Below are positions 41,858 to 57,747 of a stretch of DNA of 64,000 nt, piece after piece. The notes under the pieces were generated by a model that was not told the DNA's origin, searched no databases, and saw only the letters and a list, made by a program, of their open reading frames with translations. This DNA comes from a virus (Duplodnaviria; Caudoviricetes). Where the stretch lies: the IMG/VR virus record IMGVR_UViG_2851419669_000001, positions 1,454 to 65,453 of that record, one strand, 5' to 3'. The first letter of the stretch is position 1. Every line of letters starts with the position of its first letter. The position numbers and the translations under genes were made by a program.

Positions 41858-42076
41858 AAATGATAATTTTATGATTGCTGTAGTCCTTGTGCCGCAAGGG
41901 ATTACAAAATCATTTGTTAATTTTTCTTCCAAAAACTGCTATATTTTGGCTACTTTTTTCGTTTTTGGAAGAATCGTGGAAGAACATATCGAGTTTGAGT
42001 GGTTTTCGAGTGTAAAACAAAAGCACCAAAACGCCTTTATATCAGCGTTTTGGTGCTTTGTCGTTTCTCTATATTT

Positions 42077-42097
42077 GTCGACTTATCACCCGCACGG
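42077..42097. repeat. Prophage att core, right copy
   Basis: Identical to 192..212; overlaps tRNA-Glu 3' end. Confidence 0.93.
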
Positions 42098-42157
42098 GGA
42101 TCGAACCCGTAACTCCGCCTTGAGAGGGCGACGTCTTAACCAATTTGACCAGCGGGC
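42086..42157 (-). tRNA. tRNA-Glu(CTC)
   Basis: Cloverleaf, TCGCC-CTCTCAA-GGCGG. Confidence 0.93.
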
Positions 42158-42207
42158 ACAAATTCATTTATTATCTTACCGAATGATAAGCGGCTTGTCA
42201 AATATAA

Positions 42208-42429
42208 TTAAGATTTTTGCCACCTAAAAATCGTCACAACAACTAAACCAACAAATAAGAGCAAACAGTAGGCCACACTACACCAAAAAACGAAAGTCAA
42301 TAATTGCGGTAACAAAAAGCTGCGCATAACTGCTAATCCGATGGCCGTGACCGCCCATACGATCAATTGTTGTCGCAGATGATCGAATAAATGATCTAAT
42401 TCTGACTTCGACATACACTCACCTTCCAT
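42208..42429 (-). CDS. Small host membrane protein
   Basis: Two TM helices; lies between the two tRNAs, outside both elements. Confidence 0.65.
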   Translation of the reverse strand: MEGECMSKSELDHLFDHLRQQLIVWAVTAIGLAVMRSFLLPQLLTFVFWCSVAYCLLLFVGLVVVTIFRWQKS

Positions 42430-42548
42430 TCAACTAGTTTAGCCACCAACTGATACGATATTCAAGCAAAAATGCAAAAAATAGACACAAAGTTTCAGCA
42501 AAGTCTTGACAGTATTTGCTGGAAAAGTTACTATTAAATAGTTGTTAT

Positions 42549-42621
42549 TGGGTATTCGCCAAATTGGTAAGGCAGCGGACTCTGAATCCGTAATTTACTG
42601 GTTCGAGCCCAGTATACCCAA
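42549..42621 (+). tRNA. tRNA-Gln(CTG)
   Basis: Cloverleaf, GCGGA-CTCTGAA-TCCGT. Confidence 0.92.
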
Positions 42622-42622
42622 T
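42608..42622. repeat. Satellite att core, left (CCCAGTATACCCAAT)
   Basis: Identical to 56998..57012; 3' end of tRNA-Gln. Confidence 0.9.
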
Positions 42623-42720
42623 ATTCGTTATCAGCTGTTATCATTGGTTGTCAAAAACACCGTGATTACAGCTTTTTTATTACTCTAGTTTGTCATTGGT
42701 TGTCATCTCTTTTCACTAAA

Positions 42721-42742
42721 AGTCAGCCAAAAGGACAGCCAA
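42721..42742. repeat. Probable integrase arm site AGTCAGCCAAAAGGACAGCCAA
   Basis: Identical copy at 56904..56925; both lie within ~100 bp of the att cores. Confidence 0.7.
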
Positions 42743-42834
42743 AAATATAACAAAAAAAGCCACTGTTTCCAGTGACTTAATACTTGCGCGGGGCAGTGAC
42801 TGTTAGCCAACTTTGGTTAACAGTTTTTTTATTG

Positions 42835-43140
42835 TTAAGCCATTAGTCTAACGCTTATTATCAAGGCAATGACTGCGATAGTAATGTGTATCACAAAAAT
42901 AACCTTTCTTATAGTTTTAGGTTCATGATAAGCAGACGGCCAATGCACAAAATCAAGCACTGACAAAACCATAAAATTAAACGTTAATAATTTTATTCCA
43001 AAAACAGGTACCGGCGTAGATAAACATAAAACTATGGGGCCATCTTGAAATATGCTAAAAACTATCAAATAAGCCGGAACAATTAACAATATAATATTTA
43101 AAGTAACTTCAAACAACCATTTTTTTATAAAAGAACTCAT
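42835..43140 (-). CDS. Satellite accessory membrane protein
   Basis: About three TM helices, AT-rich, terminal cargo position. Confidence 0.6.
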   Translation of the reverse strand: MSSFIKKWLFEVTLNIILLIVPAYLIVFSIFQDGPIVLCLSTPVPVFGIKLLTFNFMVLSVLDFVHWPSAYHEPKTIRKVIFVIHITIAVIALIISVRLMA

Positions 43141-43222
43141 TTACAAGGACACTCCAGCAAATATTTAACTGCACATTATTAATTATACACTAAAATTGTT
43201 GAAGTTTGGCTATAGTAGGCAT

Positions 43223-43603
43223 TCAAACCGTTAGATCACTGTAAAATTTTGCAAAAGCGTGTAATGCTTCATTCTTCATATAATTAAACTTGCTGACACT
43301 AACCGATAATTGGCCACAAGCTTCACTGCGGCTGAAACGTTTCTTAATAATGTAATCATGTAAGATGAACTGATATTGTGGATCATCAATTGCATTTAGG
43401 GCGTCTTCGACTTCTTTTAACTGGTAAGACAAATCAACGTGGTTTATCAGGCGGCTTTCAGCACCGTTTCGGCTGCTATGGCTTGATACTCCATCGAACG
43501 AGGGACTAGAAACTTGATTAAAAGCCGTCAATTCACGTTTTAGTTTGGCATATTGCTTTAATAAATTACAAATCTTCTTAACATCTTGGCGCATTAGAAT
43601 CAC
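43223..43603 (-). CDS. ArpU/RinA-like transcriptional regulator
   Basis: LLKQY, SSPSFDG, C-terminal HTH ending AL..FA..Y. Confidence 0.75.
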   Translation of the reverse strand: MILMRQDVKKICNLLKQYAKLKRELTAFNQVSSPSFDGVSSHSSRNGAESRLINHVDLSYQLKEVEDALNAIDDPQYQFILHDYIIKKRFSRSEACGQLSVSVSKFNYMKNEALHAFAKFYSDLTV

Positions 43604-43744
43604 ACTTTCTGATCCCAGATATATGTATTAAAAAAACGGGGCTATTGCACCCCGTCTTGACTAATATCAACACTTATATTATAGCACTTAAAACAAATAT
43701 TTTCACCTATAATTGTTTAAAATGAATCATATTCACTTTAAAAC

Positions 43745-44014
43745 TTATCCGGTTACTAAACCGCGCAATTGTTGAATCATGCTAACAACTTGATACGGTG
43801 TCTTTGTCATATCGGTTACCCGGTTTTGATACCAGAATTGTGTCAGCAAGGACACGGCAAAATCGTACTGTTTGTAGCCAGTCAAATCTCCATTTTTGCT
43901 AACAGCTGTCTGTACGTAGTCCTTGGCGGCGTCTAAATAGCTTTGGATCATTGGGTCATCTTCGGTTACGTCAATTCTTAGGCTTAGTTTAATATCATCA
44001 ACGGTTACAGCCAT
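43745..44014 (-). CDS. Head-tail connector (HK97 gp6-like)
   Basis: K..LRID..EDD..I..Y..AA, WY.NR, I.QLR. Confidence 0.9.
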   Translation of the reverse strand: MAVTVDDIKLSLRIDVTEDDPMIQSYLDAAKDYVQTAVSKNGDLTGYKQYDFAVSLLTQFWYQNRVTDMTKTPYQVVSMIQQLRGLVTG

Positions 44015-44129
44015 GTAATCACTTCCTTTGTGGGGGTAACGATTCGTTCCCCCCCTTAGTTTTAATTTATGTATAGGGGTGTCCATTTTAGACACCCCCT
44101 TGTATAACCGTGCCCAAAAGTGGGTACGA

Positions 44130-45695
44130 TTATTTACCAGGCGTGGTTTTTAACGCCACGTTGATTGCAGCGGTCTTATCAATCACTTTATAATCGTTCC
44201 GCACAATGACGGAAAGACCTTGGCTAAACTGGTCAAACTTGTCCCATTGGGCGGTTACTTGGTTACGCCGGAAAACCGCCACCGCTTGTGATAAGTCCCC
44301 CACAATCATTGGGGAAGTCCCGTCGACGTTGTTGGCCAGTAACTTGTCACTAATCATGACGACTGGCGCCCCTAACAAGGTGAAGCCACTGGGTGCCGTT
44401 GGGTTCGGTTGTAACAGGTAACGTCCCTCGGAATCTTTCAAGGTATCAAGGTAGTTGAACCCGGACTGGTTCACTAACCACATTTTGCTCAAAGCGGGAT
44501 CTAACGTCACATTGAAAATCTTTTTAAGATCATCAATATTGGTAGCCGTTGCTTTGGTGAAACTGGTTCCCGTTAACAAACTCATAATCTGCGTGTTGTC
44601 CGTGTTATCAACCAATTGTTGTAATTGGTTTTTAACTTCGCTGACAATATCAACTTCGGCGTCTTCCACCACTTCATTAGATAAGGCAATCTTACCCGCC
44701 CGGGTCTTCACATCAAATGGCACTTCCGTAAACATGTTCGCGTTAACGTCGGCAATTTCCGCTAGTTCTTCCTTAGTAGCCAATACCGCAGATTGTCGGC
44801 TAGTAGCAATTGGATAAGTCCCGGAACCACTAGAAACTTGCTTGACTGTCGCATATTGGGCAAGATTGTAATTGGATTGCTTTAATTGGAAAACGGGGGT
44901 AATCAGTTCCTTAGGAATAACCGCGCTGACCCCGTCAGTCTTTAAACCGTCCCGTGTTTCCCCGTGTGTCCGTACATATTGTTCAAATGCCGGAACACCG
45001 GTTTTGCTTTCATTGCCATTAGGATCAATAATTGTTTGTTTTGTCATGTTGTCAGGCTCCTTTGCTTGATTGATAAATTTTTCGTAACTACGACTTTCAA
45101 TTTGAATCACTTGCTGAACACTCGACTGCCCATAACTTGGAATGGCCGTAGTCGTTAATTCGTATAAGTCTTTGATATGATTAACCGTCCGGGTCACTTG
45201 ACCACTCGCAGTATCTTGCGTCCAAGTATCATCGCCATTGTCTAAATCAAAGGTAAACGAGCACCCACCGATTACCCCATTTTTAATATTGTTATACGTA
45301 TCCATCGCATAACTAACGCTAGGGTCTAGCTCCGCCGTAAACTTTAAACCCGTATCATCAACGCTCGTGGTGAGGGTCCCGTTGTCGGCCCGGGCTAACG
45401 GTTGCGCCCAATTATGACTATTCAATAGGACTAATTTTGATAAGTCCAAGCCATCAAGGGCGGCGGGATCAATCATTTCAACAAATTCAGTGCCATCATT
45501 CGTACTCATTTTCAATGAGGGACTATTGAACACTACGGCATAACCAGAAATAACCGGCTTGCCATCAACTTGTTGGGCTTGCGTGGCTGGTTCACCAGGA
45601 TTAGACTGATCCTGATTTTCGGGTTTGGTTGGAACGGCGTCACGTTTTTCGGCTTTCAGTTCGGCCGCTAAGGTAAATCGTTGCTTATTCTTCAC
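44130..45695 (-). CDS. Fused prohead protease-major capsid protein (HK97 fold)
   Basis: N-term ISGYAVVFN, F.E.I...A, CSFTF, YELT..AIPSY; C-term LKDSEGRYLLQP, TLLGAPV, GDL. Confidence 0.9.
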   Translation of the reverse strand: MKNKQRFTLAAELKAEKRDAVPTKPENQDQSNPGEPATQAQQVDGKPVISGYAVVFNSPSLKMSTNDGTEFVEMIDPAALDGLDLSKLVLLNSHNWAQPLARADNGTLTTSVDDTGLKFTAELDPSVSYAMDTYNNIKNGVIGGCSFTFDLDNGDDTWTQDTASGQVTRTVNHIKDLYELTTTAIPSYGQSSVQQVIQIESRSYEKFINQAKEPDNMTKQTIIDPNGNESKTGVPAFEQYVRTHGETRDGLKTDGVSAVIPKELITPVFQLKQSNYNLAQYATVKQVSSGSGTYPIATSRQSAVLATKEELAEIADVNANMFTEVPFDVKTRAGKIALSNEVVEDAEVDIVSEVKNQLQQLVDNTDNTQIMSLLTGTSFTKATATNIDDLKKIFNVTLDPALSKMWLVNQSGFNYLDTLKDSEGRYLLQPNPTAPSGFTLLGAPVVMISDKLLANNVDGTSPMIVGDLSQAVAVFRRNQVTAQWDKFDQFSQGLSVIVRNDYKVIDKTAAINVALKTTPGK

Positions 45696-46791
45696 TCGTA
45701 TTCACTCCATTCTTTTGTAAGTTTAAGAAAATATTGCCATCGTCAGTTGGTGGCAAGCCAATCTTGGCCCGAGCTTCGTTACGGCTCATAACGCCACCAG
45801 TGAAACCAGCCACCGCTTGGGCTTGTTGCGTTTGCGGATCAAGGCTCAATAGCTTGTCCGTATTAAACGTAAAGTCATGACCAAACTTGAACGACAGCTC
45901 GCTGGTAAAGCTATCAAAGTAATGTTGCAACGTCCCTTGTAGATACTGCACGCCACTTTGTTCTTGGTTAGAATGATCGTTTTCAACCCCTAAGCGCTCC
46001 GGTGGTAAGCCAAAAGCCTTAGCAATTTGTCGGGTCGTCCAGTCATTAGAATTGACCAGCTTTAATACATCGGTATTTAAGGATAAGTTGCTAATGTCCA
46101 TCGTATCGTCAGTCACAATCGTGTTTACCGCATTGTCACCCGTATTGGCTTCATCAAACTGTTTACGAATATTGTCCTTAGCTTCCGGCCCTAAATCAGA
46201 TTGATGGACTTTAATAATCGTGGTGCCGTGCACACCAGCAGTAAAAAAGCCGGTTAGCAATTTATTGCCGGCCGACTGAATCTGGCGTTCATCTTTGAGG
46301 GCATATAGGGGACTAATTCCCGATACACCGTCTTTGGTGAAATATTTAAAATGTAAAATGTTGTTAGGCGCGATCTGACGACTGTTACCGCCAGTTGGGG
46401 TATAGGTGTAGGTCAACGCCCCACTGACGTCATCTTGTTCAACTGTCAATTGGTTATTGGCAATCAATTTCAACGTATGATTAGGCAAAATCTCGGCAAA
46501 ACTATTGCCATTGAGTAACAGGTTAGCCGCTAACGCATATTTAAAATGGTACCCGTCCATCTGACTATTGGGGGTCTGATTAATCATCGTGTTAAAGATT
46601 GCTGTATCACACATAATTGGATTGCTGGCAATATCGCTCGCAATAATATTAATCGCCGCGTAAATGTCACTATTACGCAACACCGCCGCACTCACAAACG
46701 TATACGGGTCGTTGCTTGATAAACTAACCAAGGCGTCAGCCACCGGATCATGCGTGCCGCTGGTGGTATTGCTTTTAACAAAAAAACTCAT
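45685..46791 (-). CDS. Portal protein, HK97 type
   Basis: LLLNGNSF, ILHFK....DG..GISPL, IAKAFGLPP, NEAR...GLPP. Confidence 0.92.
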   Translation of the reverse strand: MSFFVKSNTTSGTHDPVADALVSLSSNDPYTFVSAAVLRNSDIYAAINIIASDIASNPIMCDTAIFNTMINQTPNSQMDGYHFKYALAANLLLNGNSFAEILPNHTLKLIANNQLTVEQDDVSGALTYTYTPTGGNSRQIAPNNILHFKYFTKDGVSGISPLYALKDERQIQSAGNKLLTGFFTAGVHGTTIIKVHQSDLGPEAKDNIRKQFDEANTGDNAVNTIVTDDTMDISNLSLNTDVLKLVNSNDWTTRQIAKAFGLPPERLGVENDHSNQEQSGVQYLQGTLQHYFDSFTSELSFKFGHDFTFNTDKLLSLDPQTQQAQAVAGFTGGVMSRNEARAKIGLPPTDDGNIFLNLQKNGVNTSEE

Positions 46792-47007
46792 TTAATCACC
46801 TCTTTGCTTTTCATAATTAATTAGCAAGGCCAGCAGAATCATGGCTATACCAGCCAATATTAACCCCGCTTGCCAGCTGAACCAGCAACCAAAACCAATC
46901 ACTAAGCAGATTAAGCCAAGCACCAACAAGATTGTTTGTACATAATTAGAACAGATCTGCCGCAGTCGCTGTTTTGTAGTAATCTTCTGCATGCTGTTGA
47001 TCCTCAC
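46792..47007 (-). CDS. Small membrane protein between terL and portal
   Basis: Two TM helices; start uncertain. Confidence 0.6.
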   Translation of the reverse strand: MRINSMQKITTKQRLRQICSNYVQTILLVLGLICLVIGFGCWFSWQAGLILAGIAMILLALLINYEKQRGD

Positions 47008-48649
47008 TTTCTTGGTAATAGTCCATACCAGCTACAAATGCGTTAATCAACGCCGCAATCGGGTCAATCCGGTTACTATTACGGGCTTTATCCAGTTGCC
47101 AACCATTGTTTATCACTTTCAAGATGGCGTTATTGACCGCATAAGCGAGAATCTTATTGCCGTTATGTTTAATCTTGTCATCGTAAAGCTGATCACGGAA
47201 ATTACGAGTTGGAATATTCAAAGTCTTGGTGCCTTGTCGCACTTCAAACAGTGGGTAGCTTAATTTCTCGAATTTTGTAATTAACGTTTGCGCGTTATAC
47301 GGGTCATAAGCGATTGCTTTCACTTTCCAGTTGTATTTCCCGACCAGTTTTTGTACAAAATCAAATAGATTGTCATAATCAATAATGCCACTATCTAATC
47401 GGGTGATACTACACTCACCCGCCCGTTCCATTGACCTGTAATCAATGCCATCACGTTTAATCTTAGAATCAAGGCCGTATTTAGTCCCCACAAATGAATG
47501 ACTGTCACAATAAAACTGACCGTTACCAATTGGAACGAGCCAACTAACCGCGGTTAAGTCATTACTTTTTGATAAATCAATGCCAATATAGGCGTCACGA
47601 TTATGTAAGTCGGGCACCTTTGCCAATTTACCAGCGGCCCAATCGTCTGCTGAAATATAACTGTCCTCGCTGGCTTGCAACCACATGTTGAAGTTCTTAA
47701 CCAGTATTGGAATGAGATTATTTTGTTTAATGGCAAGGTCAACGTCAGCCTGAATCTTTTCCGTCATGCGTTGTTTAACGTGTGGTTCACTGAACAACGG
47801 GTTGGCCTTAATCCAATTGGCTTGATCGTAAACTTCTTCGCGGTCGTCCAGTTCCCATATTGCCACAAAATAACGGTCAGCTTCGGTTTTCCCCTTTAAA
47901 ACGTCCGTCAGCATGTCATATTCGGCGTGCATTGGGACGTTAAGGTTAAGACCCGAGGTGGAAATAACCGCCAGCAGGGAGTTATCTTCTTGTGCTTGAC
48001 CAGACTTTAAAACGTTGTACACTTTGCGGTCTTTAGCTTCGTGCCATTCATCTAAAATAACGGTCGTCCCGGCATAACCATCAAGCGTACTGGTATCACT
48101 GGCAAGGGCCAAGGCTTGCGAATCAGTTTCTAAGTCAGTAATGGCTTGCTTCTGTACCTTAATTCGTTGCCGCATGTACTTCGATTGCTTGCGGACTTGC
48201 CGTAACCCACTTGAAAGCATGTCATAGCCCAATTTAGCTTGTTTAAGTGCGTTGCTGACGAATAATACTTGTCGGTTGCGGGCGGGCTGACGTTCTCTTA
48301 AAAGGCCATTAGCGGCCATGCCAGAAGCCAGATAGGTTTTACCATTCTTACGGGCCATACTAATAAACGCCCGATCATAGCGGCGGTTACCAGTAGTTTT
48401 TTCGCGCCAGCCATACAGTTCGCTAATAATCCATTTTTGAAATGGTTGCATGGTGAGTTGGCTACCGTCAGTCTTAGGCATTAATTCGATAAATTTGACC
48501 GCCTGTGCCGCTTTGTCTTCGTCGTAGTAGAACGGGAAGCTGTCGTCCTTAGAACGGCTTAAATCGCGTTTAAATCGCTCACACGCCCATTTGATTTTTT
48601 GACCAGCCAACACTTGACCCGATAACACTTGGTCAACATATTCAATCAT
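46946..48649 (-). CDS. terL: Terminase large subunit (cos/HK97 type)
   Basis: ARKNGKT, ILDEWH, GIDLSKSNDLTA, RIDPIAALINA. Confidence 0.95.
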   Translation of the reverse strand: MIEYVDQVLSGQVLAGQKIKWACERFKRDLSRSKDDSFPFYYDEDKAAQAVKFIELMPKTDGSQLTMQPFQKWIISELYGWREKTTGNRRYDRAFISMARKNGKTYLASGMAANGLLRERQPARNRQVLFVSNALKQAKLGYDMLSSGLRQVRKQSKYMRQRIKVQKQAITDLETDSQALALASDTSTLDGYAGTTVILDEWHEAKDRKVYNVLKSGQAQEDNSLLAVISTSGLNLNVPMHAEYDMLTDVLKGKTEADRYFVAIWELDDREEVYDQANWIKANPLFSEPHVKQRMTEKIQADVDLAIKQNNLIPILVKNFNMWLQASEDSYISADDWAAGKLAKVPDLHNRDAYIGIDLSKSNDLTAVSWLVPIGNGQFYCDSHSFVGTKYGLDSKIKRDGIDYRSMERAGECSITRLDSGIIDYDNLFDFVQKLVGKYNWKVKAIAYDPYNAQTLITKFEKLSYPLFEVRQGTKTLNIPTRNFRDQLYDDKIKHNGNKILAYAVNNAILKVINNGWQLDKARNSNRIDPIAALINAFVAGMDYYQESEDQQHAEDYYKTATAADLF

Positions 48650-49119
48650 GATAACATCGCCTCAAAAGTATCTTCGGGTGTTTCATCTTTTTGCTTGTTT
48701 AATTCCATGCGAGCCCGGCTCGATAGCGACATGCCTAAATCATTGGCTAAGGCTTTTAAATCTTTCATCGCTTGTGACTGCAAGGCCACGTAAGGGTTCG
48801 GCTTACGTACACCAGTCTCTTGATTAGTTTGTACCAGCCCGTTCTTACGAATATCATTCTCGCAAGTCTGTACTGTTGCATAAGCGCGGCAATAACTGGC
48901 TAACATGGCCCGATCAAGTTCACTAATTGGGGTATTGGCCTTTAAATAAGGCGCTACCCGTTGCCATTCAGTCAAGGCCCGATCATGTAACCAATCTGGT
49001 GGGGTTAAATCAAGCACCGGATAATCAAATAACGCTTTTTCAGCGTCCTTACGTTGATCACGCTCATCATTGGTTAAATGTTTCTTCATACTAGCTAAGG
49101 CTTTTACTTTTTGGCTCAT
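48646..49119 (-). CDS. terS: Terminase small subunit, P27 family
   Basis: PP.WL...A..EW.R, L..YC, NP, LGMS.SSR. Confidence 0.9.
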   Translation of the reverse strand: MSQKVKALASMKKHLTNDERDQRKDAEKALFDYPVLDLTPPDWLHDRALTEWQRVAPYLKANTPISELDRAMLASYCRAYATVQTCENDIRKNGLVQTNQETGVRKPNPYVALQSQAMKDLKALANDLGMSLSSRARMELNKQKDETPEDTFEAMLS

Positions 49120-49382
49120 TCGGAGCACTCCTTTCGTTTAAATTTACGTACCAAAAAGCCCCCACGGGTTAGACCCATAGCGGCTGATTGATACATATAT
49201 CCAGAATTCTTTTATTATACCTATATTATCGCACATATCTCTAAAAAGTGCAATTAATAACATGTATATATTTACACGTTACCCCCTGACTGGCTATTTG
49301 TTTAAATTTCGCATTATTTAAATTTCGCATTATTAGTAGGGATATTTCACAATCCAGCAAAATCAGCAAAAAATCAAAGCTC

Positions 49383-49447
49383 AAAAGGGACTTTTATAAA
49401 CACAAAAGTATGCTGTCCGCTCCCTCCGTGTCGACCATAGCCCCCCA
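49383..49447 (-). other. Putative cos packaging region
   Basis: GGGGGG...GGAGCGG motif between HNH and terS, the usual cos location in HK97-type Firmicute elements. Confidence 0.45.
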
Positions 49448-49492
49448 TATCAACGTTTCTGGGCTGTCATGCTGTTTTGAATTAGTCTCGTA

Positions 49493-49705
49493 GCGCAAAA
49501 TTGAGCCGCCAACTTGGATTGCTCGCTCGGCCGAAAAATCGGCGCAGTCCATTGCCAATTTTGGCAACGTAGACGCAAAATGCGGGTTGGTTAACTTGGT
49601 CGAAAATTTCGACTCAGTAGCTCGGCTGAAAGTTCAACGCAGTATTGCGCAGATCTACTACTCAATATGAATCTTGAATTGTGGGTATAAAATTGCGACT
49701 CACAA
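49493..49705. repeat. Cluster of diverse short palindromes
   Basis: GCCGAAAAATCGGC, TTGCCAATTTTGGCAA, CGCAAAATGCG, GTCGAAAATTTCGAC and others, closely packed. Confidence 0.65.
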
Positions 49706-50118
49706 ATTGTTTTCTCGCTTTCACGTGATATAATTAACTTAACTGTCAGGTTAATTATCATAGATGCAAGTGGTCGCCTTAACGGGCGGCTTTTTGTTTA
49801 CCTATCTAAGCTAAGCTTAGGTAGCACAAGCAACCTGTCACGTCATCTTAGCGGGTCAGCTAGTGCACCAAGTTAGTGCGTTGTGCCAGTTAATGTTCCA
49901 CGTTGTGCCACGTGTGTACCACGTTAGTCCACTTTGAAAACGTTGATATATCAATGGTTGTGCCACGTGTTCCACGTGTTCCACGTTAATATGAACATTT
50001 ACAATTATAGTAGTAATGATAGTAAGCCAGCGTACCAAGTTAGCACGTTAGGGTCGTAACTTGCGACCGCAGACACTAAAAAAGTGCCGCGCCTTTCAGC
50101 ACGACACTCATTGGTCAT

Positions 50119-50514
50119 TTAGTTGAGCGGAGTTTTCCGCTGTTCTCTAACCAATCCCGTTTTTCGGTTGTGGTGTCGGTAGCACAATGGTTGTAGGTTG
50201 CTTTCATCTAAGCGACGTGACCAATCGTCTTTGATCTCAATAACGTGATCGACCACATCGGCTTTGCGGATCACCCCATCTTGGTAACATTGCACGCATA
50301 CCGGATTACTTTCAAGGAACCGCCGTGACAACTTGCGCCATGCTGACGACTTGTAGAACTGCTGGTACTTACTCTCGTCTGAATCGTACATACGTTTGTG
50401 GTAACGCCACTTGTTAGTTGCCTTGCGGTGCTTCTCACAGTATCGTACATCATAAGCAACTAGCGTCCGACAACCCGGGTGCTCACATTGTTTCATCGGT
50501 TTAGCCATGACCAT
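50119..50514 (-). CDS. HNH endonuclease (packaging-associated)
   Basis: FY.S..WR, C..C, VDH...I, NLQPLC..HHN.KT. Confidence 0.92.
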   Translation of the reverse strand: MVMAKPMKQCEHPGCRTLVAYDVRYCEKHRKATNKWRYHKRMYDSDESKYQQFYKSSAWRKLSRRFLESNPVCVQCYQDGVIRKADVVDHVIEIKDDWSRRLDESNLQPLCYRHHNRKTGLVREQRKTPLN

Positions 50515-50848
50515 TTACCTTGGTAAGTGTGACCACGTCATAGGCGTTCAGCTCGCTATCAGAACTAATACCAGCAACGCGATACGTAACCCCATCTAAT
50601 AACGCTAGTAGTGCTGTGGTAATACGTTCATCATGGCGCACCGCAATTAGCTGGTTAGTTGTCGCAGTCGTACCAGTAAGGCTAATCGTGTTGCTGATGG
50701 TCAACGTATATTCACCATACCAGACAGTGAACTGTGGCACGAATTGTTGCTTGGTTGTGCCGTTTATTAAATTTTCAACTGACTTAACGGTGCCAAACTG
50801 TACCCGCTCATTCAGGCGGCTTAGATTATAGTTCTTCATTGTCATCAC
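50501..50848 (-). CDS. Head-tail adaptor/head closure protein
   Basis: RL..RV.FG, F.VW, IAVRH, Y.V..I motifs. Confidence 0.75.
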   Translation of the reverse strand: MMTMKNYNLSRLNERVQFGTVKSVENLINGTTKQQFVPQFTVWYGEYTLTISNTISLTGTTATTNQLIAVRHDERITTALLALLDGVTYRVAGISSDSELNAYDVVTLTKVNGHG

Positions 50849-51137
50849 CTAACACTCCTGATTCGGGGTTATTGAACCAATCTAGTACCGCTTGGCTTTC
50901 CTCTTTGCGTAAGTCTGTTAGTGCCGGATTACCATTTTCTTTATACTGAACAATTGCCACGAAGTCAGGTTCTTCGGCTAAATTGTCTTTTGTATTTCGC
51001 GCAAATTGATAAATATTAAGAACTACCACTTCGCTCCCATTTCGTAAATATAAATGTTCAAGTTGGTCAGGTTCCCGAGTAATGAATAACTCACATTGCC
51101 CCATCTTATTATCATAGTCAATCATTCTAATTTTCAT
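50826..51137 (-). CDS. Hypothetical protein
   Basis: AAAGGA RBS, in operon. Confidence 0.6.
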   Translation of the reverse strand: MKIRMIDYDNKMGQCELFITREPDQLEHLYLRNGSEVVVLNIYQFARNTKDNLAEEPDFVAIVQYKENGNPALTDLRKEESQAVLDWFNNPESGVLGDDNEEL

Positions 51138-51160
51138 TATAGTTAGATCCTTTCTATATA

Positions 51161-51580
51161 TTAATCATCTAATTGTTCCAACATCTTGTACGCATTTTTG
51201 CGTTGTTCTTCATCGCTTAAAGGATTATTCAAAACTTGGCTTGAAACGTTTCGGATAACGTAGGCGTCAGCTAACCAACCTTGACTTGATTTCATAAAGT
51301 GATCGTCACTAAATTGTGCATAAATGGGGTACATGAGTTTTAAGTCTCTTAAAGTTTCTGGCTCATATTCTCCATCTTCATTTGGGGTAAAGCTCCCAAC
51401 CAATCCTTTATCTTTTGCTTTTTGAGTTGGCTCACCATTTTGATCTAAAGCACCTTCTTTAATCAAGGCTCTGTAAATACACGATTTTAATTCATTAACT
51501 CTATTTGAGACAATTGGTCCATATTGTTTAACGTAAATGTCAAAAGCTTGCTCAACTAAACTTGGATAAATTACTTTCAT
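51161..51580 (-). CDS. Hypothetical protein
   Basis: Start MKVIYPSLVEQ behind AGGA. Confidence 0.65.
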   Translation of the reverse strand: MKVIYPSLVEQAFDIYVKQYGPIVSNRVNELKSCIYRALIKEGALDQNGEPTQKAKDKGLVGSFTPNEDGEYEPETLRDLKLMYPIYAQFSDDHFMKSSQGWLADAYVIRNVSSQVLNNPLSDEEQRKNAYKMLEQLDD

Positions 51581-51584
51581 TTTT

Positions 51585-51713
51585 CCTTTTCCTCCTGTAC
51601 TGGAAATGTTTGTTTTAACGTGGTCCACGTGGTCCGGTGGTCCAAACGTTGATATATCAACGCTTTAAAGACCCCCTGACGTGGTCCATATGGTGGTCCA
51701 ACGTGGTCCACTT
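51585..51713. repeat. Putative satellite ori (6x GTGGTCC iterons around CGTTGATATATCAACG); copy 1 of a 129-bp inverted repeat
   Basis: Directly downstream of VirE helicase; reverse complement of 56761..56889. Confidence 0.8.
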
Positions 51714-51726
51714 AGTAAATTTCTGA

Positions 51727-53121
51727 TTAAACTTCGCGCATATACCCATGTAGACGTTGGCCATTCATTCTAATTCGTTGACTTTTCCAACCGTCCATAT
51801 TGTCCATTAACAACTTGATTCGCTTAGCTTCCGAGTTTGTTCGCCCGGTTAAATAACGATCAACTGTTTTATGGAAGACAACTTCCATAATTTCCCGAGT
51901 TGTTGTTTGATTGAGTAGTTTCCGTTCATTACTAACTTGATCTTGTAGCCACTTAGAATGATGGCCGTAGTCACTGACATAGCTTTGTTTTAAGCCGGTA
52001 CTCATGTTTTCCCAATCTGCGGGAACTTCCATTGCTAAAAACTCTTCGATGGCATCTCGCATAGGTTCGACAGCTTCCGCAGCCATCTGATACGCCTTAG
52101 CCTCTTTCATGGTGGCCTGATCCAGATATAGCGGTTCGCCATTCCTAAACCAGTACATGGCTTCCGCCAATACTTGAAGAATGTAATTCTCGTCCGGGTG
52201 CCATACATCTAATTTGGCCTTGTTGACCCCACATTTAATTGGATAAAAGCGCCGTTCACCGGTCGCATCCTTTAAATAGTCAGTTTGGTTAGTTGTGCCA
52301 ATAAATACGCATTTACGTGGGTGCGGTAACGCATAGCGGCCATAACTATTCCGATATGTGTCGGATTGTGCACTAATAAAATTTTTAATTCCCTCAATGT
52401 CCGTTTTCTTCATGGCGGAAAGCTCGGCAACTTCAATAATCCAACTACCTTGCAACTGTTGATAATCGTCTTTCTGCTTACCCATTCCTTTCAACGAATC
52501 ATTGAATTTATCCGGGTATAGATTCTTACCAGCCGTACTCTTGCCAAGTCCTTGGCTTCCCTCTAAGATAGGAACGATTTCAAACTTAACGCCGGGTTCA
52601 TAGGCCCGAGCAACAAGACCAGTTAGCCATTTCTTAGTGATGGTGCGGGTGTAATGATTATCTTCGGCACCTAAGTAATCAATGAAATAACGTTCAGCGC
52701 GTGGTTGGCCGTCCCATTCTACTGCCTCAATACGAGCCTTAACCGGATTGATTGTCTTGCGGCGTGCCTCTGTAACTACTGCGTCGGTAATGTTCTCCTT
52801 GCTGAATAACAAGTTATAATGATCTTCAATATAACTTCTCAATAACGTGTCATCACTATCATTCCAAAAACCTTTTTTGAACGGTGAATTTTCTGCTTGT
52901 GGTGTTTTAACGATTTGTTCCGAGAACTCGTCAAAGACAACTAGCCCTTTCAGCATTTCATCATGTTCCATAATTAAGCGGATATTGTAAAGAGACTGTG
53001 TTTTGATTCCATCGTCCGAATTCTTTTTGAAATCATTCTGCCAATCGGCGGCACGTTGCATTTTGATAACATTATTGGCCGCTTCTCGGGTCTCTGCTGG
53101 TAAATCCATTGCTTTACCCAT
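51727..53121 (-). CDS. VirE/VapE-family replicative helicase
   Basis: GSQGLGKST, WIIEVAEL, FIGTTN..DYLKDATGERRF. Confidence 0.92.
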   Translation of the reverse strand: MGKAMDLPAETREAANNVIKMQRAADWQNDFKKNSDDGIKTQSLYNIRLIMEHDEMLKGLVVFDEFSEQIVKTPQAENSPFKKGFWNDSDDTLLRSYIEDHYNLLFSKENITDAVVTEARRKTINPVKARIEAVEWDGQPRAERYFIDYLGAEDNHYTRTITKKWLTGLVARAYEPGVKFEIVPILEGSQGLGKSTAGKNLYPDKFNDSLKGMGKQKDDYQQLQGSWIIEVAELSAMKKTDIEGIKNFISAQSDTYRNSYGRYALPHPRKCVFIGTTNQTDYLKDATGERRFYPIKCGVNKAKLDVWHPDENYILQVLAEAMYWFRNGEPLYLDQATMKEAKAYQMAAEAVEPMRDAIEEFLAMEVPADWENMSTGLKQSYVSDYGHHSKWLQDQVSNERKLLNQTTTREIMEVVFHKTVDRYLTGRTNSEAKRIKLLMDNMDGWKSQRIRMNGQRLHGYMREV

Positions 53122-53921
53122 TAATGAACCCCCTTACTCTCTCGTTTTAAAATAGATTGAAAAATCACATTAACTTCCTTGCTTGGTAGTGCCGGATCAA
53201 CGAATGAATCATTGATCACTGACATCATGTTATAGACCGTCTTAGGATCAGCACCGACGCCAAACATTCGACCAGCAATTTTAGTTAACCAAGCGTTGCG
53301 ATTGCCTTGGGTTGTCCCGGTTACCATTTCATCTAACAAGCGACCGGTATACTTCTTTTGGCGTGTGGTATAGGCGTGTTCTGACGTCCAGTTCACTTTT
53401 TGGCCCGCCAACTTATCGACTAACCATTGAGGAGCCGGCTTAATATCAGCCAATGTTCGGCTATCTAAAGGTTTATATTGTTTACCATTAATTTCACTTG
53501 GTGCAATCACCGTGAAGTCACTTAACAAGTCAATCCCGGGCCAAACGTCAATTTTACGAACCTTAGCACCCGCGTATTTCAAAAAGTAATGTACGCCGCC
53601 GTTAGCCGTCCGTTCAATGTAGGTATCATTCGGCAACGTCTGTCCTTGCTTAAATAGTTGTGCCAAGCTAGTCCGACCATTTTTAGTTGGCTCGTGCATA
53701 TCAATATCAACAACCAATAAATCCGATAAATCTAGGCGCAAGCCTAAGTTGTAAGTCGGGTGATTTTTGAACCATGCAAAGATGGTGTTCTGGTCACTAG
53801 TTGCGGCTTGGTAGCCGGCCACTCCTTTCGGTGGCTTCTTCATATTCTCAATCAGTGGGTAAACCGCATAGCCTTGCTGCGCCAGCTCAATTGCTTTATC
53901 AAGCGTTGCGAACTCTTTCAT
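53121..53921 (-). CDS. Bifunctional primase/polymerase with PriCT domain
   Basis: G.AVYPL, VVDID.H, TANGGVHY, GNRN..L...AG. Confidence 0.9.
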   Translation of the reverse strand: MKEFATLDKAIELAQQGYAVYPLIENMKKPPKGVAGYQAATSDQNTIFAWFKNHPTYNLGLRLDLSDLLVVDIDMHEPTKNGRTSLAQLFKQGQTLPNDTYIERTANGGVHYFLKYAGAKVRKIDVWPGIDLLSDFTVIAPSEINGKQYKPLDSRTLADIKPAPQWLVDKLAGQKVNWTSEHAYTTRQKKYTGRLLDEMVTGTTQGNRNAWLTKIAGRMFGVGADPKTVYNMMSVINDSFVDPALPSKEVNVIFQSILKRESKGVH

Positions 53922-53934
53922 TGTTCATCACCAC

Positions 53935-54177
53935 CTAATCTTTGGGACAATAATCTTCGGGACAAATGTCATTGCTAACTTCTAACATCACACTAGCAAT
54001 ATTCAATAGATTACTTTCAAGGTTGCTTGATTGCTGGCTCTTAAAGAAATAGTCACACCAATCACTATCATATTTCGTAACAGTCATTGCCATTGATAAA
54101 TTATCAATACTTACTTTCAATGATTCCCACGCCGTTGCTAATTTTTCAGATTGTTCCATTAATTCTTTATTTGTCAT
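53935..54177 (-). CDS. Hypothetical protein
   Basis: ORF with RBS in replication operon. Confidence 0.6.
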   Translation of the reverse strand: MTNKELMEQSEKLATAWESLKVSIDNLSMAMTVTKYDSDWCDYFFKSQQSSNLESNLLNIASVMLEVSNDICPEDYCPKD

Positions 54178-54296
54178 TTTCCATTCTCCTTATTCGTGTT
54201 AAAATAAGGGAAAGCATATTTTTGATTATTTCTTCGACCTACTGCCGTCCAAAGCAAAGTAGGCCTTTTTTGTATGCTTTCCCATTAGACTTGACC

Positions 54297-54404
54297 TCAC
54301 ATTCCAAAATACCGACGCGGATTCTTGACTAACTTAAATGACACGTTGCCGACAAACGACACAATCATAAATTTGATTACCCATAAGATTGCTGTTGCTA
54401 TCAT
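54297..54404 (-). CDS. 35-aa hydrophobic peptide (not in ORF track)
   Basis: AAGGAGGTG RBS; MIATAILWVIKFMIVSFVGNVSFKLVKNPRRYFGM. Confidence 0.5.
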   Translation of the reverse strand: MIATAILWVIKFMIVSFVGNVSFKLVKNPRRYFGM

Positions 54405-54446
54405 GAAATCACCTCCTTAAAATTATTCTGCCCCCGCACGGTACAA

Positions 54447-54635
54447 TTAAATTTTATGTGCTTCCATGAACTTATCAGCGTCTAGTTGGTCAATACGTTT
54501 TGTACCGTTGATTGCAACTACTCGTAAACCCTGACCAATGTATTTGTACAGCGTGTTATATGATTTGATATTCAAGCACTCCATGGCTTGCTTATATGTC
54601 ATATATCTTGGAAAACTATTTTTCATATTCATCAT
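54447..54635 (-). CDS. Excisionase-like HTH protein
   Basis: YMTYKQA...L.I.SY.TLYK, RID..D...F. Confidence 0.75.
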   Translation of the reverse strand: MMNMKNSFPRYMTYKQAMECLNIKSYNTLYKYIGQGLRVVAINGTKRIDQLDADKFMEAHKI

Positions 54636-54819
54636 TTTTTCTCCTTAACCAAATTTCTAACTTACAATATGTTTGCGTAGTAACTTCGGTTTTTCGACTA
54701 TTTAATATGTCTGAAAGTGTCCATCTATTAACACCGCTCGAAATTGACATTTTTTTTACTGTGTCCATTCCCTTTGCTTTGACCAGTGACATGCGAAACG
54801 GTTTTGTGATCTTCATCAT
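54616..54819 (-). CDS. Cro-like HTH regulator
   Basis: SGVNRWTLSDILN; divergent from repressor. Confidence 0.7.
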   Translation of the reverse strand: MMKITKPFRMSLVKAKGMDTVKKMSISSGVNRWTLSDILNSRKTEVTTQTYCKLEIWLRRKNDEYEK

Positions 54820-54837
54820 ATACTACCCTCCTGACTA

Positions 54838-54899
54838 GCAACTTTTTGTTGACAAAATATATTATACGCAACTTTACGTTGCAGTCAACAAAAAGTTGC
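54838..54899. promoter_or_regulatory. Satellite switch operators
   Basis: 16-bp inverted repeat GCAACTTTTTGTTGAC/GTCAACAAAAAGTTGC enclosing GCAAC-N5-GTTGC. Confidence 0.7.
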
Positions 54900-54951
54900 A
54901 CTATGTTACTAAAAACTGTAAAATATTCCTGTATTAGGAAGTGATTAGACA

Positions 54952-55518
54952 ATGAATAAAATAAAAGAACTACGTCAATATATGGGGCTTTCACAAGCAG
55001 AACTTGCTGAAAAATTGAATGTAACTCGGCAATCTATAAGCCTATATGAAAAAGGTCAAAGAGTTCCACGTATTAATGTTTTGAAGAATATGGAAGCCAT
55101 TTTTGGCGTGCCGATAAGTTATATTCAAGGCCAGGCGACGTATTTATCACCTATAGATAAGGCTAATCTTGTTTCACAAAAAATTAAGTTTGGAAAAGAT
55201 GAGCAACTCTCTGTACTAACCCAAGTTCTTGATGATTCAAAAAAAGATGACGTTCAAAAACTAAAGAAACAACTTAACGATCTTGACAAAATTATTGATA
55301 CCCTTTCTGACACTACAATCAAAAGCTTATATACATCAGTTAATTTTTTGCTTGAGCTAGATCAGTCTGATGACTCACTACTACAGCAAGCATATTTTTC
55401 TCTAATTTCAAAATTAGAACTAGCTTTGAATTCAAAAACGGAAATATCAAGAAAATTTGCAGAGCATATATTTAAAGATTTTTTTAATCGTTTGAAAGAA
55501 TTTAGCTATAAAAAATAA
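54952..55518 (+). CDS. Stl-like XRE master repressor
   Basis: LSQAELAEKLNVTRQSISLYEKGQRVP. Confidence 0.88.
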   Translation: MNKIKELRQYMGLSQAELAEKLNVTRQSISLYEKGQRVPRINVLKNMEAIFGVPISYIQGQATYLSPIDKANLVSQKIKFGKDEQLSVLTQVLDDSKKDDVQKLKKQLNDLDKIIDTLSDTTIKSLYTSVNFLLELDQSDDSLLQQAYFSLISKLELALNSKTEISRKFAEHIFKDFFNRLKEFSYKK

Positions 55519-55570
55519 TTTTCCATACATAACACTGCCCCCGCACGGTACGTTATGGAGGAAATTATAA

Positions 55571-56728
55571 ATGGCAACAATCAAGAAGTATCAGGACAAG
55601 GACGGGAATACCCGTTATCAGTTTCAAGTTTATTTAGGTGTTGATCCACTAACGGGAAAAAAGAAAAATACCCGACGCCGTGGATTCAAGACAAAAAAAG
55701 AAGCCCAGATTGTATTATCAAGACTTGAACTTGATATTTACAATCATGGACTACCGACTAAAAACGATAATACAATTTTTAAGGATATTTACCTACTGTG
55801 GTTCACGCAATATAAACAAACGGTTAAGGAAAGCACTTGGGTAACGACTCAACGGCTGTTCCGGCTTCATATTTTACCAATATTTAGTGATTACCGGATT
55901 GCTAAAATATCCATTAAGGATTGTCAAAAAGCCATAAATCAGTGGTTTAATGCTGGCTTAGTAAAGTATCATACTCTAATGAATTACGTTGCCAAGGTGC
56001 TTGATTATGCCATTAATATTGACTTGATCAGTGAGAATCCAGCCAAGCGCGTTATTGTGCCAGTAAATAAAAATGATCGTTCACGCAAAAATTTAGAAAA
56101 TTACTTTGATAAGGCTGAATTACAACACTTCTTTGAGTGCCTGAATGATGATGACAATACACCGCAAGCCAATGTATTCTTTCGTTTAGCGGCCTTTACT
56201 GGTATGAGAAAATCTGAAATGCTTTGCTTAGAATGGTCTGACATTGATTTTAGCAATCACACTATACGGGTTAATAAAACACAATCCCGTGGTGATGGTG
56301 CCCGTCTGCTAGTACAAGCGCCTAAGACAGCGCGTAGCAATCGGACAGTGTATTTAGATCCCACTACGATCAAAATATTGCAACACTGGCAAGTTGACCA
56401 AAAAGAATGGCTACTACGTTTCGGCTTTAACATCAACCAAGGTAACCACTATGTGTTTGCTAATGAAAATAACGAGATGTTTCAACCATCTAAGCCACGT
56501 AAATGGCTTGAGCATACTCTAACTAAATATGACTTGAAGCATGTTACGGTTCACGCATTCCGCCACACTTATGCGACGCTTGCATTTGAAGCCCATGCTT
56601 CCATCAAGTCAGTACAAGACCAGCTAGGGCATTCAAGCTATCGCACAACTTTAGATATTTACACCGCAGTTACTGCCAAACAAAAAAATGAGGCCACCGA
56701 AAAACTGGCTAATTACCTTAATTTTTAA
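55571..56728 (+). CDS. int: Satellite tyrosine integrase
   Basis: TGMRKSE, HAFRHTYAT, LGHS....TLDIYT. Confidence 0.95.
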   Translation: MATIKKYQDKDGNTRYQFQVYLGVDPLTGKKKNTRRRGFKTKKEAQIVLSRLELDIYNHGLPTKNDNTIFKDIYLLWFTQYKQTVKESTWVTTQRLFRLHILPIFSDYRIAKISIKDCQKAINQWFNAGLVKYHTLMNYVAKVLDYAINIDLISENPAKRVIVPVNKNDRSRKNLENYFDKAELQHFFECLNDDDNTPQANVFFRLAAFTGMRKSEMLCLEWSDIDFSNHTIRVNKTQSRGDGARLLVQAPKTARSNRTVYLDPTTIKILQHWQVDQKEWLLRFGFNINQGNHYVFANENNEMFQPSKPRKWLEHTLTKYDLKHVTVHAFRHTYATLAFEAHASIKSVQDQLGHSSYRTTLDIYTAVTAKQKNEATEKLANYLNF

Positions 56729-56760
56729 TATTTAGACTGCTAAATTTGACGCATTTTACC

Positions 56761-56889
56761 AAGTGGACCACGTTGGACCACCATATGGACCACGTCAGGG
56801 GGTCTTTAAAGCGTTGATATATCAACGTTTGGACCACCGGACCACGTGGACCACGTTAAAACAAACATTTCCAGTACAGGAGGAAAAGG
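56761..56889. repeat. Copy 2 of 129-bp inverted ori repeat
   Basis: Exact reverse complement of 51585..51713. Confidence 0.85.
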
Positions 56890-56997
56890 GTTAATTTAAT
56901 GGTAGTCAGCCAAAAGGACAGCCAACTCAATTTCTTAATGGCCTGAACGCCTCATAATAGCTGGTATACAAGCATTTTTGGTGATATGGGGGTCGTT

Positions 56998-57012
56998 CCC
57001 AGTATACCCAAT
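56998..57012. repeat. Satellite att core, right
   Basis: Identical to 42608..42622. Confidence 0.9.
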
Positions 57013-57024
57013 CAGAAGTACGGA

Positions 57025-57068
57025 TAAAGCCACGCAGGTAAGTTCAAATTTACCTGCGTGGCTTTTTA
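57025..57068 (+). terminator. Host terminator originally downstream of tRNA-Gln
   Basis: AAAGCCACGCAGGTAA...TTACCTGCGTGGCTTT hairpin plus T-tract. Confidence 0.8.
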
Positions 57069-57216
57069 TGAATTGTCACACCCTTGCCAGTGCAATTTTA
57101 TCTTTTTTCACTCAAAACGGTTTACGGACTTGATTAGGGGTTTATAATAGATAGTGTAGACTGTCTGTGAAGCCTTGTAAAATTGTCACTATTTTAAATT
57201 CAATCCAAAGGAGATA

Positions 57217-57450
57217 ATGTTGTTGGTATACAAAGATGTTTTTGGTATCGATCACAATGATTGTCACATTGTTCAGACGCGGCACGAGTTTAACCGGATC
57301 TTCATTATCGAAAATGAAGTTGGCTCTCGCTTTACTTGCATCAAAGATGATGCCCCACTCGAAAAGAAGATGTCTGGGCACTGGAAGTATGCAAAAGCTA
57401 GCGACGCCCCTAAGAACTATGCCGTTCCTTATAAGGCCCAGAAAAACTAA
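57217..57450 (+). CDS. Hypothetical host protein
   Basis: GGAG RBS. Confidence 0.6.
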   Translation: MLLVYKDVFGIDHNDCHIVQTRHEFNRIFIIENEVGSRFTCIKDDAPLEKKMSGHWKYAKASDAPKNYAVPYKAQKN

Positions 57451-57474
57451 ACAACCGTTGAAAAGAGGATTACG

Positions 57475-57747
57475 ATGCGGCGCTATCAACCGTTAACCAA
57501 ATCAAATGGCCGGGTCCCCCACTCGCTCAATCATAACACCAACCCCTACTATGGTCAGCATGGTGCTGATTGGGTCAAAGACACGAATGCTTCGCTATTT
57601 AATGCCCAACATGAGCATCTCCAATCAAAGAGCCATGTTGAGCGACGCGTGCGGCACAACGTCCGTCAAGTGCTGTGGGTGGTCGTGGCGATTCTTGCCA
57701 TGTTACTTGGTGGTTTTATCTTGTTCTCATTAGCGATCAATATTTAA
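57475..57747 (+). CDS. Hypothetical protein with C-terminal TM
   Basis: GAGGA RBS; bidirectional terminator at ~57752..57794. Confidence 0.6.
   Translation: MRRYQPLTKSNGRVPHSLNHNTNPYYGQHGADWVKDTNASLFNAQHEHLQSKSHVERRVRHNVRQVLWVVVAILAMLLGGFILFSLAINI

Follow-up and report, generated by a model that had tools for sequence, protein, structure and literature searches.

Why should a non-coding stretch of a phage satellite, lying directly beside its packaging genes, be filled with short and mutually different palindromes? The question is raised by a 64,000-nt stretch of DNA, hereafter the window (positions 1,454 to 65,453 of the IMG/VR virus record IMGVR_UViG_2851419669_000001, Caudoviricetes), in which the spacer between the HNH endonuclease gene and the small terminase gene (terS) of a capsid-forming satellite holds about nine palindromic units. 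The answer that we favour, at a probability of roughly 0.5 and by comparison of sequences, is that these units form an array at which regulators from other phages would dock. In sequence and flanks the units agree with palindromes that Rha- and ORF6N-type antirepressor genes carry within their own coding sequences, and since the satellite encodes neither a Rha nor an ORF6N protein, the predicted ligands of the array would be foreign regulators.

A preliminary description of this locus, made from the letters of the window, had spoken of some eight different palindromes packed into non-coding DNA and of one more at 50052. On direct reading of 49493-50068 we count four perfect and five imperfect palindromes (Table 1); the packing is thus real, but the units other than the four perfect ones are imperfect or decayed. 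Two of them had been called variants of one 23-mer, and indeed the related 23/24-mers at 49525-49548 and 49620-49643 are 79% alike. Whether the density exceeds a shuffled background depends on what is counted. Generic palindromes (perfect arms of at least 5, loop of at most 6) number three, which is not significant, as this count was reached by 181 of 1000 dinucleotide shuffles and the covered length by 60 of 1000. In contrast, when a unit must have a core of 4-8 bp made up of A/T only, with 4 or more complementary bases on its flanks, the segment 49480-49720 holds three (those at 49530, 49552 and 49599, each with a 4-bp arm, an A/T core and the complementary arm) against a shuffle mean of 0.10, and three were reached by 1 of 2000 shuffles. 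Coding 700-nt windows of related loci (n = 352) contained no such unit in 310 cases, one in 41 and two in 1, a mean of 0.12. The related loci number 89, nine of them in Lactiplantibacillus, Levilactobacillus and Secundilactobacillus genomes and 80 in IMG/VR (here and below, labels such as L009 or L156 denote the related loci, genes or phage records that were compared). Over these 89 loci, palindromes with arms of at least 6 and loops of at most 3 numbered 190 in the bin 400-600 nt before terS versus 0-62 in the other bins. The array stretch is non-coding, as had been proposed: the longest open reading frames (ORFs) that overlap it are 42-57 aa long, and among relatives the spacer varies by entire modules and through indels whose lengths are not divisible by three.

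The units had further been suspected of matching palindrome-encoding stretches of Rha- and ORF6N-type genes, and this link holds. From IMG/VR we examined 118 Rha loci, of which 106 had the helix and RDGF motifs, representing 87 distinct genes. Directly after the recognition helix, a palindrome whose arms measure 6 or more is present in 62 of the 87 genes, compared with 11 of 87 and 12 of 86 for control stretches of equal length; arms of at least 7 are found in 34 of 87, compared with 2 and 4 in the control stretches. The DNA remains palindromic here although the peptide that it encodes is hypervariable (AENSA, PKNG and VRNFA are examples). In prophages of the L. plantarum group, ORF6N genes carry GGTCGAAATTTTCGACC or TCGAAAATTTCGA at VE(I/N)FD, and two AntA genes encode AAKNLA through TGCTAAAAATTTAGCA and TGCCAAAAATTTGGCA, a compensatory change at synonymous positions. 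Two further palindromes were seen in genes of these kinds. The Rha gene L117 has its internal palindrome CTCCGCAATTTTGCGGAG and, about 630 nt upstream, a copy with the same arms, CCGCAAAATTGCGG (positions 25-38 and 658-675); this second copy could be a looping partner for autoregulation. The AntA-type genes L095 and L096 of Streptococcus phages hold a second conserved palindrome, GTAGTTGGAACTAC, which encodes SVVGTT and whose region is identical at 30 of 32 nt between the Streptococcus phages and Lactobacillus phage Lb.

Three units of the window match such gene segments together with their flanks. The stretch 49486-49512 agrees at 25 of 27 positions with the Rha gene L211, and its counterpart in relatives, the first unit (U1) of 12+12+4 L. 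plantarum satellites, agrees at 26 of 27 with the Rha genes L186, L211 and L215. The stretch 49527-49543 matches the Rha gene L242 at 16 of 17 positions, and its exact 14-mer occurs in the Rha genes L206, L208 and L244. The third, 49598-49615, matches the ORF6N gene L287 at 17 of 18 positions and thereby fits, flanks included, the pattern TCGAAA(A/T)TTTCGA of the VE(I/N)FD stretch. The peptide readings proposed earlier fit as well, 'SAEKSAQ' corresponding to the Rha segment 'AAEKSAA' and the reverse strand of 'SKISTQ' reading VEIFD, as in 'RVEIFDL' of ORF6N. Agreement is still closer in the arrays of relatives: a unit of L010 with its flanks is identical to JNU_P2-type Rha over 30/30 nt, one of L009 matches at 31/32 the coding sequence of a Rha+ORF6C antirepressor of the L. 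brevis phages LBR48, JNU_P2 and JNU_P4, a unit of phage Lb matches the Rha gene L252 (25/25), a unit of L011 the Rha gene L233 (26/27), and the ORF6N gene L156 matches four related satellites (21/21). A pattern scan for one cassette frame, with constant flanks and free arms, returned 19 IMG/VR loci, of which eight lie in intact Rha genes (arms GCGC or TCC), six in non-coding arrays (arms CCCC, GTCC, GCGC, GCTC and CCTC), four in short frames and one in an unrelated place. The units stand in both orientations relative to the sense of the genes. At least seven Rha specificity classes are thus represented in the arrays, by their operator stretch alone and not by random pieces of the genes. By sequence and flanks, units of the window fit the Rha own-gene operator, a 14-16 bp palindrome with 4-5 bp arms around an A/T core, but they sit in no Rha gene.

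That the gene-internal palindrome is an operator at all is indicated by a residue-to-base rule. Of the 87 Rha genes, 69 have a palindrome whose core is A/T, and in these the third base of the 4-bp arm can be predicted from the helix residue that stands two places beyond the invariant His: Asp goes with G in 21 of 21 rows, His with C in 28 of 28 and Asn with T in 13 of 13. Counted by helix dipeptide class, which lessens the effect of shared descent, the rule holds in 5/5 classes for Asp, 5/6 for His and 3/3 for Asn; the single exception, in the His class, fits if its site is read as 4+6+4, and none of 200,000 class-level permutations was equally concordant. Asp-C, His-G and Asn-A are the usual contacts of these residues with DNA, and the pairings of the rule match them on the partner strand. 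In an AlphaFold2 model of the Rha N-terminal domain (predicted local distance difference test score, pLDDT, 84.5), the rule residues lie at the start of the helix formed by residues 27-40, within a helix-turn-helix followed by a beta wing. Because a residue of the helix sets a base of the arm, we take the rule as strong, if indirect, evidence for binding of the Rha domain to the palindrome of its own gene, which it presumably reads as a dimer. The ORF6N genes present a cruder version of the rule: in 46 loci, helices ending in ..QNF go with TCGA arms and those ending in ..TNF with TTAC, while those ending in ..ENF or ..DNF come without a palindrome.

If the units are operators, their reader is not encoded alongside them. 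Targeted searches and Pfam scans detected neither a Rha nor an ORF6N gene in the record of the window, in agreement with the preliminary description, and none was present in five of five other array-bearing records, the complete phage Lb included; the reader therefore appears to come from elsewhere. Among satellites of Levilactobacillus and Secundilactobacillus that carry TGCGCAATTTTGCGCA, a candidate was found close at hand, as two of three genomes hold an intact Rha-KilAC gene with the same palindrome and flanks, and the third has a second copy of TGCGCAATTTTGCGCA in another non-coding array.

The number and order of units had been expected to vary among related satellites, and they do. Across 88 of them the count runs from 0 to 7, with differences by whole modules. 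More distant relatives have cleaner arrays, L009 with seven units and L011 with six (either count reached by 0 of 2000 shuffles), and L009, L010, L011 and L073 show perfect palindromes of 14-16 bp, such as AGCTGAATTTTCAGCT, TGCGCAAAATTGCGCA, AGCGGAATTTTCCGCT, GGCTCAATTTTGAGCC, CCCCAATTTTGGGG and AGCCGAATTTTCGGCT. The arm positions are the least conserved columns within a stretch that is otherwise 90-99% conserved, and tandem modules have near-identical flanks with both arms changing symmetrically. Hybrid units join half-sites of different Rha classes between common 8-nt flanks.

A homologous array outside the satellites is found in Lactobacillus phage Lb (L094, MG020111). Over 250 nt, non-coding DNA of this phage can be aligned with the L009 array (79%), and a BLAST search of the window's spacer against phages gave a single match, of 56 nt, again to phage Lb. 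There the array (2400-2730) lies between the cro-like orf48 and orf47, an antirepressor gene of the AntA+KilAC type, and it runs from an antirepressor-type ribosome-binding site and ATG through a 14-codon AntA fragment to six Rha-type operator cassettes, the last of which overlaps the ribosome-binding site of orf47. Over 32 nt the AntA piece is identical at 30 positions to AntA-type antirepressor genes; it has matches in 70 other phage records, and among the matches listed 30 of 38 are annotated as antirepressor. This fragment was also the only hit when four antirepressor proteins were compared with the arrays by tblastn. The whole genome of phage Lb has no Rha gene of its own.

We picture the array as made of cassettes of about 25-35 bp, each with a 4-bp variable arm, an A/T core of 6-7 bp and the complementary arm, that would have been copied from Rha and ORF6N coding sequences. 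Regulators from helper phages or from co-resident prophages would bind them. As a sensor, the array could take this binding as the signal of phage lytic growth and act on the adjacent packaging operon; as a decoy, it could titrate the phage regulator. Recombination with phage genes seems to supply fresh cassettes, which would leave behind hybrid and decayed units such as most of those seen in the window. In a more specific form of this proposal, which we offer tentatively, the arrays of Lactobacillaceae satellites and of some phages, such as phage Lb, would serve as a multi-specificity 'listening post': with operators copied from the Rha and ORF6N genes of many possible helpers, any such phage that enters lytic growth would deliver a protein that binds the satellite beside its packaging operon.

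Several observations speak against docking sites. Only three or four of the about nine units in the window are perfect, most being decayed or hybrid, and the best-matched one, at 49486-49512, consists of hybrid half-sites, which are expected to be poor targets for a homodimer. Such half-sites suggest ongoing exchange with phage genes, within the A/T core, rather than tuned sites. For the unit at 49552 we found no source gene: of the 80 IMG/VR loci with its 16-mer, 19 were satellites and none had it in an ORF with Rha motifs. The enrichment of antirepressor genes that had been anticipated among BLAST hits failed to appear for the window itself, whose array had chance-level hits in six of the 50,697 phage records searched and hit no antirepressor gene there; the enrichment is visible only through the arrays of relatives and the IMG/VR gene sets. 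The ORF6N unit showed no same-genome association, being present in 2/4 satellites whose genome has a matching ORF6N gene versus 4/8 whose ORF6N gene has no palindrome. The 16-mer of the Rha protein's own site occurs only once in phages JNU_P2 and G013, a Foldseek comparison of the modelled Rha N-terminal domain with the PDB returned nothing at E <= 0.001 (the best hit, a winged-helix regulator, had E 0.09), and part of the concordance behind the helix-arm rule could stem from shared descent, though the rule recurs across 14 helix classes. Lastly, 10 of 88 relatives have no unit and L040 lacks the whole array, so the array is dispensable.

Much of this would equally be expected if the array were functionless recombination debris, the gene palindromes having acted as hot spots of breakage or template switching whose pieces were pasted into a permissive spacer beside the ends of the satellite genome and then decayed. 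A copy number of 0 to 7, the absence of the array from L040, the many decayed or hybrid units of the window, gene flanks copied along with the palindrome, the gene start with its AntA fragment that opens the phage Lb array, and a spacer that also collects ori-like iterons and, in L022, an insertion sequence (IS) all agree with this reading, which we consider unlikely and yet take seriously. It leaves unexplained why only the operator stretch was taken, from at least seven Rha classes, why tandem modules with near-identical flanks change symmetrically in both arms, and why perfect palindromes persist in many lineages, the ORF6N unit in 52 loci; arm columns that are far more variable than their flanks are likewise not predicted by plain neutral decay. 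A store of donor cassettes, from which gene conversion would change the specificity of Rha and ORF6N proteins in phages, would account for hybrid units with half-sites of different Rha classes between common flanks. A new arm without the matching helix residue would, however, break a rule that holds in 62 of 62 rows; moreover, the common flanks measure only about 8-10 nt and dedicated recombination machinery is absent beside the array, and we regard such a store as highly improbable.

Two readings that dispense with a foreign regulator fare no better. The units could be accessory sites of the cohesive-end (cos) region for the satellite's own TerS or HNH enzyme, as the array lies between HNH and terS, where phages with HNH-type cos have their cos. 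A study of HK97 describes a small terminase that needs, at a distance of 15-29 bp from the cut, an A-tract flanked by C:G pairs, a requirement comparable to the A/T cores (10.1101/2023.07.17.549218); the TerS of the window belongs to Terminase_4, and phmmer of this TerS against PDB sequences gave no terminase match, leaving kinship to HK97 TerS unsupported. We give this reading very little credit, as L040 and nine further relatives without units keep the conserved core, the homologous array of phage Lb lies between cro-like and antirepressor genes and not at cos, the units copy Rha and ORF6N gene segments, and their arms differ from unit to unit despite a single TerS. The remaining reading takes the units for RNA hairpins, sense or antisense copies of helper antirepressor mRNA that would pair or compete with it. 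Antirepressor genes are classically under antisense RNA control, as with P22 sar and P1 c4, which control ant, and complementarity between array units and Rha genes reaches 30 nt. Contigs from RNA libraries cover the array in 4/4 runs, but they are strandless and may reflect DNA carry-over; contig depth is lower over the array, which, being taken from assembled contigs, proves nothing. The units stand in both orientations, mismatches in imperfect units have no G.T strand bias (7 versus 9, plus 32 of other types), an Rfam scan of 48000-51500, hairpin 49772-49797 included, returned no family at E <= 1, and the AntA palindromes are compensated at synonymous positions; for these reasons we place the signal at the level of DNA. 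The residue-to-base rule, too, indicates a protein reader, and an RNA role strikes us as very improbable.

As to the element itself, it had been taken for a satellite, and its gene content and attachment (att) repeats agree. The record is an IMG/VR provirus that comprises a full prophage at about 3000-42000, with a small terminase of the Terminase_2 type, and alongside it a separate small element bounded by the 22-nt att repeats, 14.2 kb apart (42721-56925). The HNH, TerS, TerL, portal, protease, capsid and head-tail connector genes all lie within 43745-50848, protease and capsid as a fusion, and a head completion protein is encoded as well; no tail or lysis genes were detected among the ORFs of 42721-56925. 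As judged from its genes, the element is a capsid-forming, tail-less phage satellite. It has the traits of phage-inducible chromosomal islands (PICIs) that form capsids: an integrase and regulatory end, replication genes of its own, packaging and head genes of its own, no tail or lysis genes, and a size within about 10-15 kb. Many IMG/VR relatives are contigs of 14-15 kb, and L007, whose record is titled plasmid, measures 14,527 bp. The accessible part of the preprint on capsid-forming PICIs gives hnh-terS-terL as the gene order of the Lactococcus/Enterococcus group, and its trees of capsid and TerL proteins contain a Lactobacillus clade (10.1101/2022.09.08.507074); our satellite resembles those islands in gene content, size and this gene order, and differs in that this part of the text makes no mention of arrays of palindromes, or of sites of the Rha/ORF6N kind, within the packaging spacer.

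Table 1. Features of the satellite and of its HNH-terS spacer, in window coordinates
Feature	Position	Strand	Remarks
att repeat, left copy, 22-nt direct repeat AGTCAGCCAAAAGGACAGCCAA	42721..42742		satellite left end; longest exact repeat common to 41801-43000 and 56701-57600
PHROG 248 'transcriptional activator'	43223-43603		
Small terminase TerS (Pfam Terminase_4)	48646..49128	-	E 1.2e-26
Non-coding HNH-terS spacer	49129..50118	.	990 bp
Promoter-like site (TAGAGA-18-TATAAT), then terminator-like hairpin	49162..49243	-	just before terS; consensus matches only
Most conserved core GATATGGGGGGCTATGG	49435..49451	-	candidate cos cut site or late-transcript start
GCGCAAAATTGAGC, imperfect, hybrid of two half-site types	49493-49506 (unit 49486..49512)	+	Rha segment; genes read ..LVAQNCAAK..
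GCCGAAAAATCGGC, perfect	49530-49543 (with flank 49527..49543)	+	Rha-type unit, His-Lys-His helix class
TTGCCAATTTTGGCAA, perfect, 16 bp	49552-49567	.	source gene not found
CGCAAAATGCG, perfect, 11 bp, shorter arms	49574-49584	.	present in 79 loci
GTCGAAATTTTCGAC with flanks, copy of ORF6N-gene palindrome	49598..49615	-	VEIFD / VENFD in genes; perfect in 52 loci
GTCGAAAATTTCGAC, perfect	49599-49613		within the ORF6N-type unit
GCTGAAAGTTCAAC, imperfect, decayed	49625-49638	.	perfect GCTGAACTTTCAGC in 65 relatives
CGCAGTATTGCG, imperfect, decayed	49638-49649	.	
TGTGGGTATAAAATTGCGACTCACA, imperfect, 25 bp, A/T core	49680-49704	.	
Terminator-like hairpin, weak promoter-like site before	49772..49797	+	
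Iteron cluster, GTNCCACGT repeats around AACGTTGATATATCAA	49855..50050	.	like ori-type iterons at 51601-51706
GGTCGTAACTTGCGACC, imperfect	50052-50068	.	conserved beside arrays of L009-L012 and phage Lb
HNH endonuclease, packaging module	50119..50514	-	PF01844, E 1.1e-07
VapE helicase	51727-53121		
Prim-Pol	53121-53921		
HTH_3 repressor-like protein	54952-55518		
Integrase	55571-56728		
att repeat, right copy, 22 nt	56904..56925		satellite right end

Conservation of the spacer is about 90% over 49129-49661 in nearly all of the 89 relatives, and 49661-50079 forms a variable swap zone. Contigs from RNA libraries of three runs end at 49446-49474, at the conserved core, which hints weakly at a cos end or transcript start there. 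On the minus strand of 49162-49243 the hairpin and a T run follow within about 30 nt of the promoter-like site, a layout that recalls antitermination-controlled late operons. The segment 49298-49329 is a 16-nt tandem duplication (TTGTTTAAATTTCGCA / TTATTTAAATTTCGCA) that is a single copy in all other aligned relatives, and the RNA-library contigs are also 16 nt short at this point. In L022, an IS-type transposase in two overlapping frames (1613-2412) lies within the HNH-terS spacer, which therefore tolerates insertions; a hidden antirepressor gene was sought in the spacers of L022 and L020, with the IS element as the only find in L022 and nothing in L020. Outside the spacer, an iteron cluster with GTGGTCCACGT repeats around AACGTTGATATATCAACG at 51580-51706, just after the VapE gene, is probably the replication origin (ori) of the satellite. 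A near-identical inverted copy is present at 56760-56887, with the integrase gene on one side and the right att repeat on the other, and the spacer iterons at 49898-50003 are a diverged relative of the cluster (73% over 106 nt). Two palindromes, CAACTTTTTGTTG (54839-54851) and CAACAAAAAGTTG (54886-54898), stand in a divergent region, with the repressor-like gene on one side and the early genes that run leftward on the other. Both share the build of the array units, with 4-bp arms and an A/T core, and are probably the satellite's own operators.

Several known systems share single traits with the arrays. Clerget and Boccard reportedly found in 1996 that HK022 Roi, a member of the Rha family, binds a site inside its own gene, beside a site for integration host factor (IHF). 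The Rha genes studied here are alike in having a cognate palindrome within the coding sequence, and the helix-arm rule fits direct reading; unlike in HK022, however, the hosts are Firmicutes, no IHF site accompanies the palindrome, and copies occur outside Rha genes, in an element without Rha, with ORF6N-type sites mixed in. In satellite P4, promoters answer proteins of the helper P2, with Cox boxes at PLL and Ogr/Delta sites at the late promoters. P4 thus also bears sites for helper regulators, by which it times its own programme, but these serve one helper, whereas here many specificities, taken from inside regulator genes, would stand side by side. DNA-binding proteins whose sites are embedded in coding sequence are further known from the lambda ori inside gene O and from the third operators that lactococcal phages carry in early genes; those belong to other protein families and come without arrays in trans of many specificities. 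In Creative Commons papers of PubMed Central and in bioRxiv we found no description of such arrays. What appears to be new is the occurrence, in Gram-positive hosts, of IHF-free arrays with ORF6N sites admixed, which capsid-forming satellites carry in their HNH-terS spacer and which are also found in one phage.

The known ways in which satellites recognise many different helpers are protein-protein contacts with antirepressors. If the docking reading is true, a DNA array in which the cognate sites of an entire family of regulators are gathered would be another mechanism of helper recognition, and a readable one: since one residue of the helix sets one base of the arm, the helpers sensed by each unit would be predictable from sequence alone. 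The rule offers a means of pairing satellites with helpers in genome data, and it gives the very common and poorly understood Rha 'antirepressor' domain a concrete activity, namely predicted sequence-specific binding inside its own gene.

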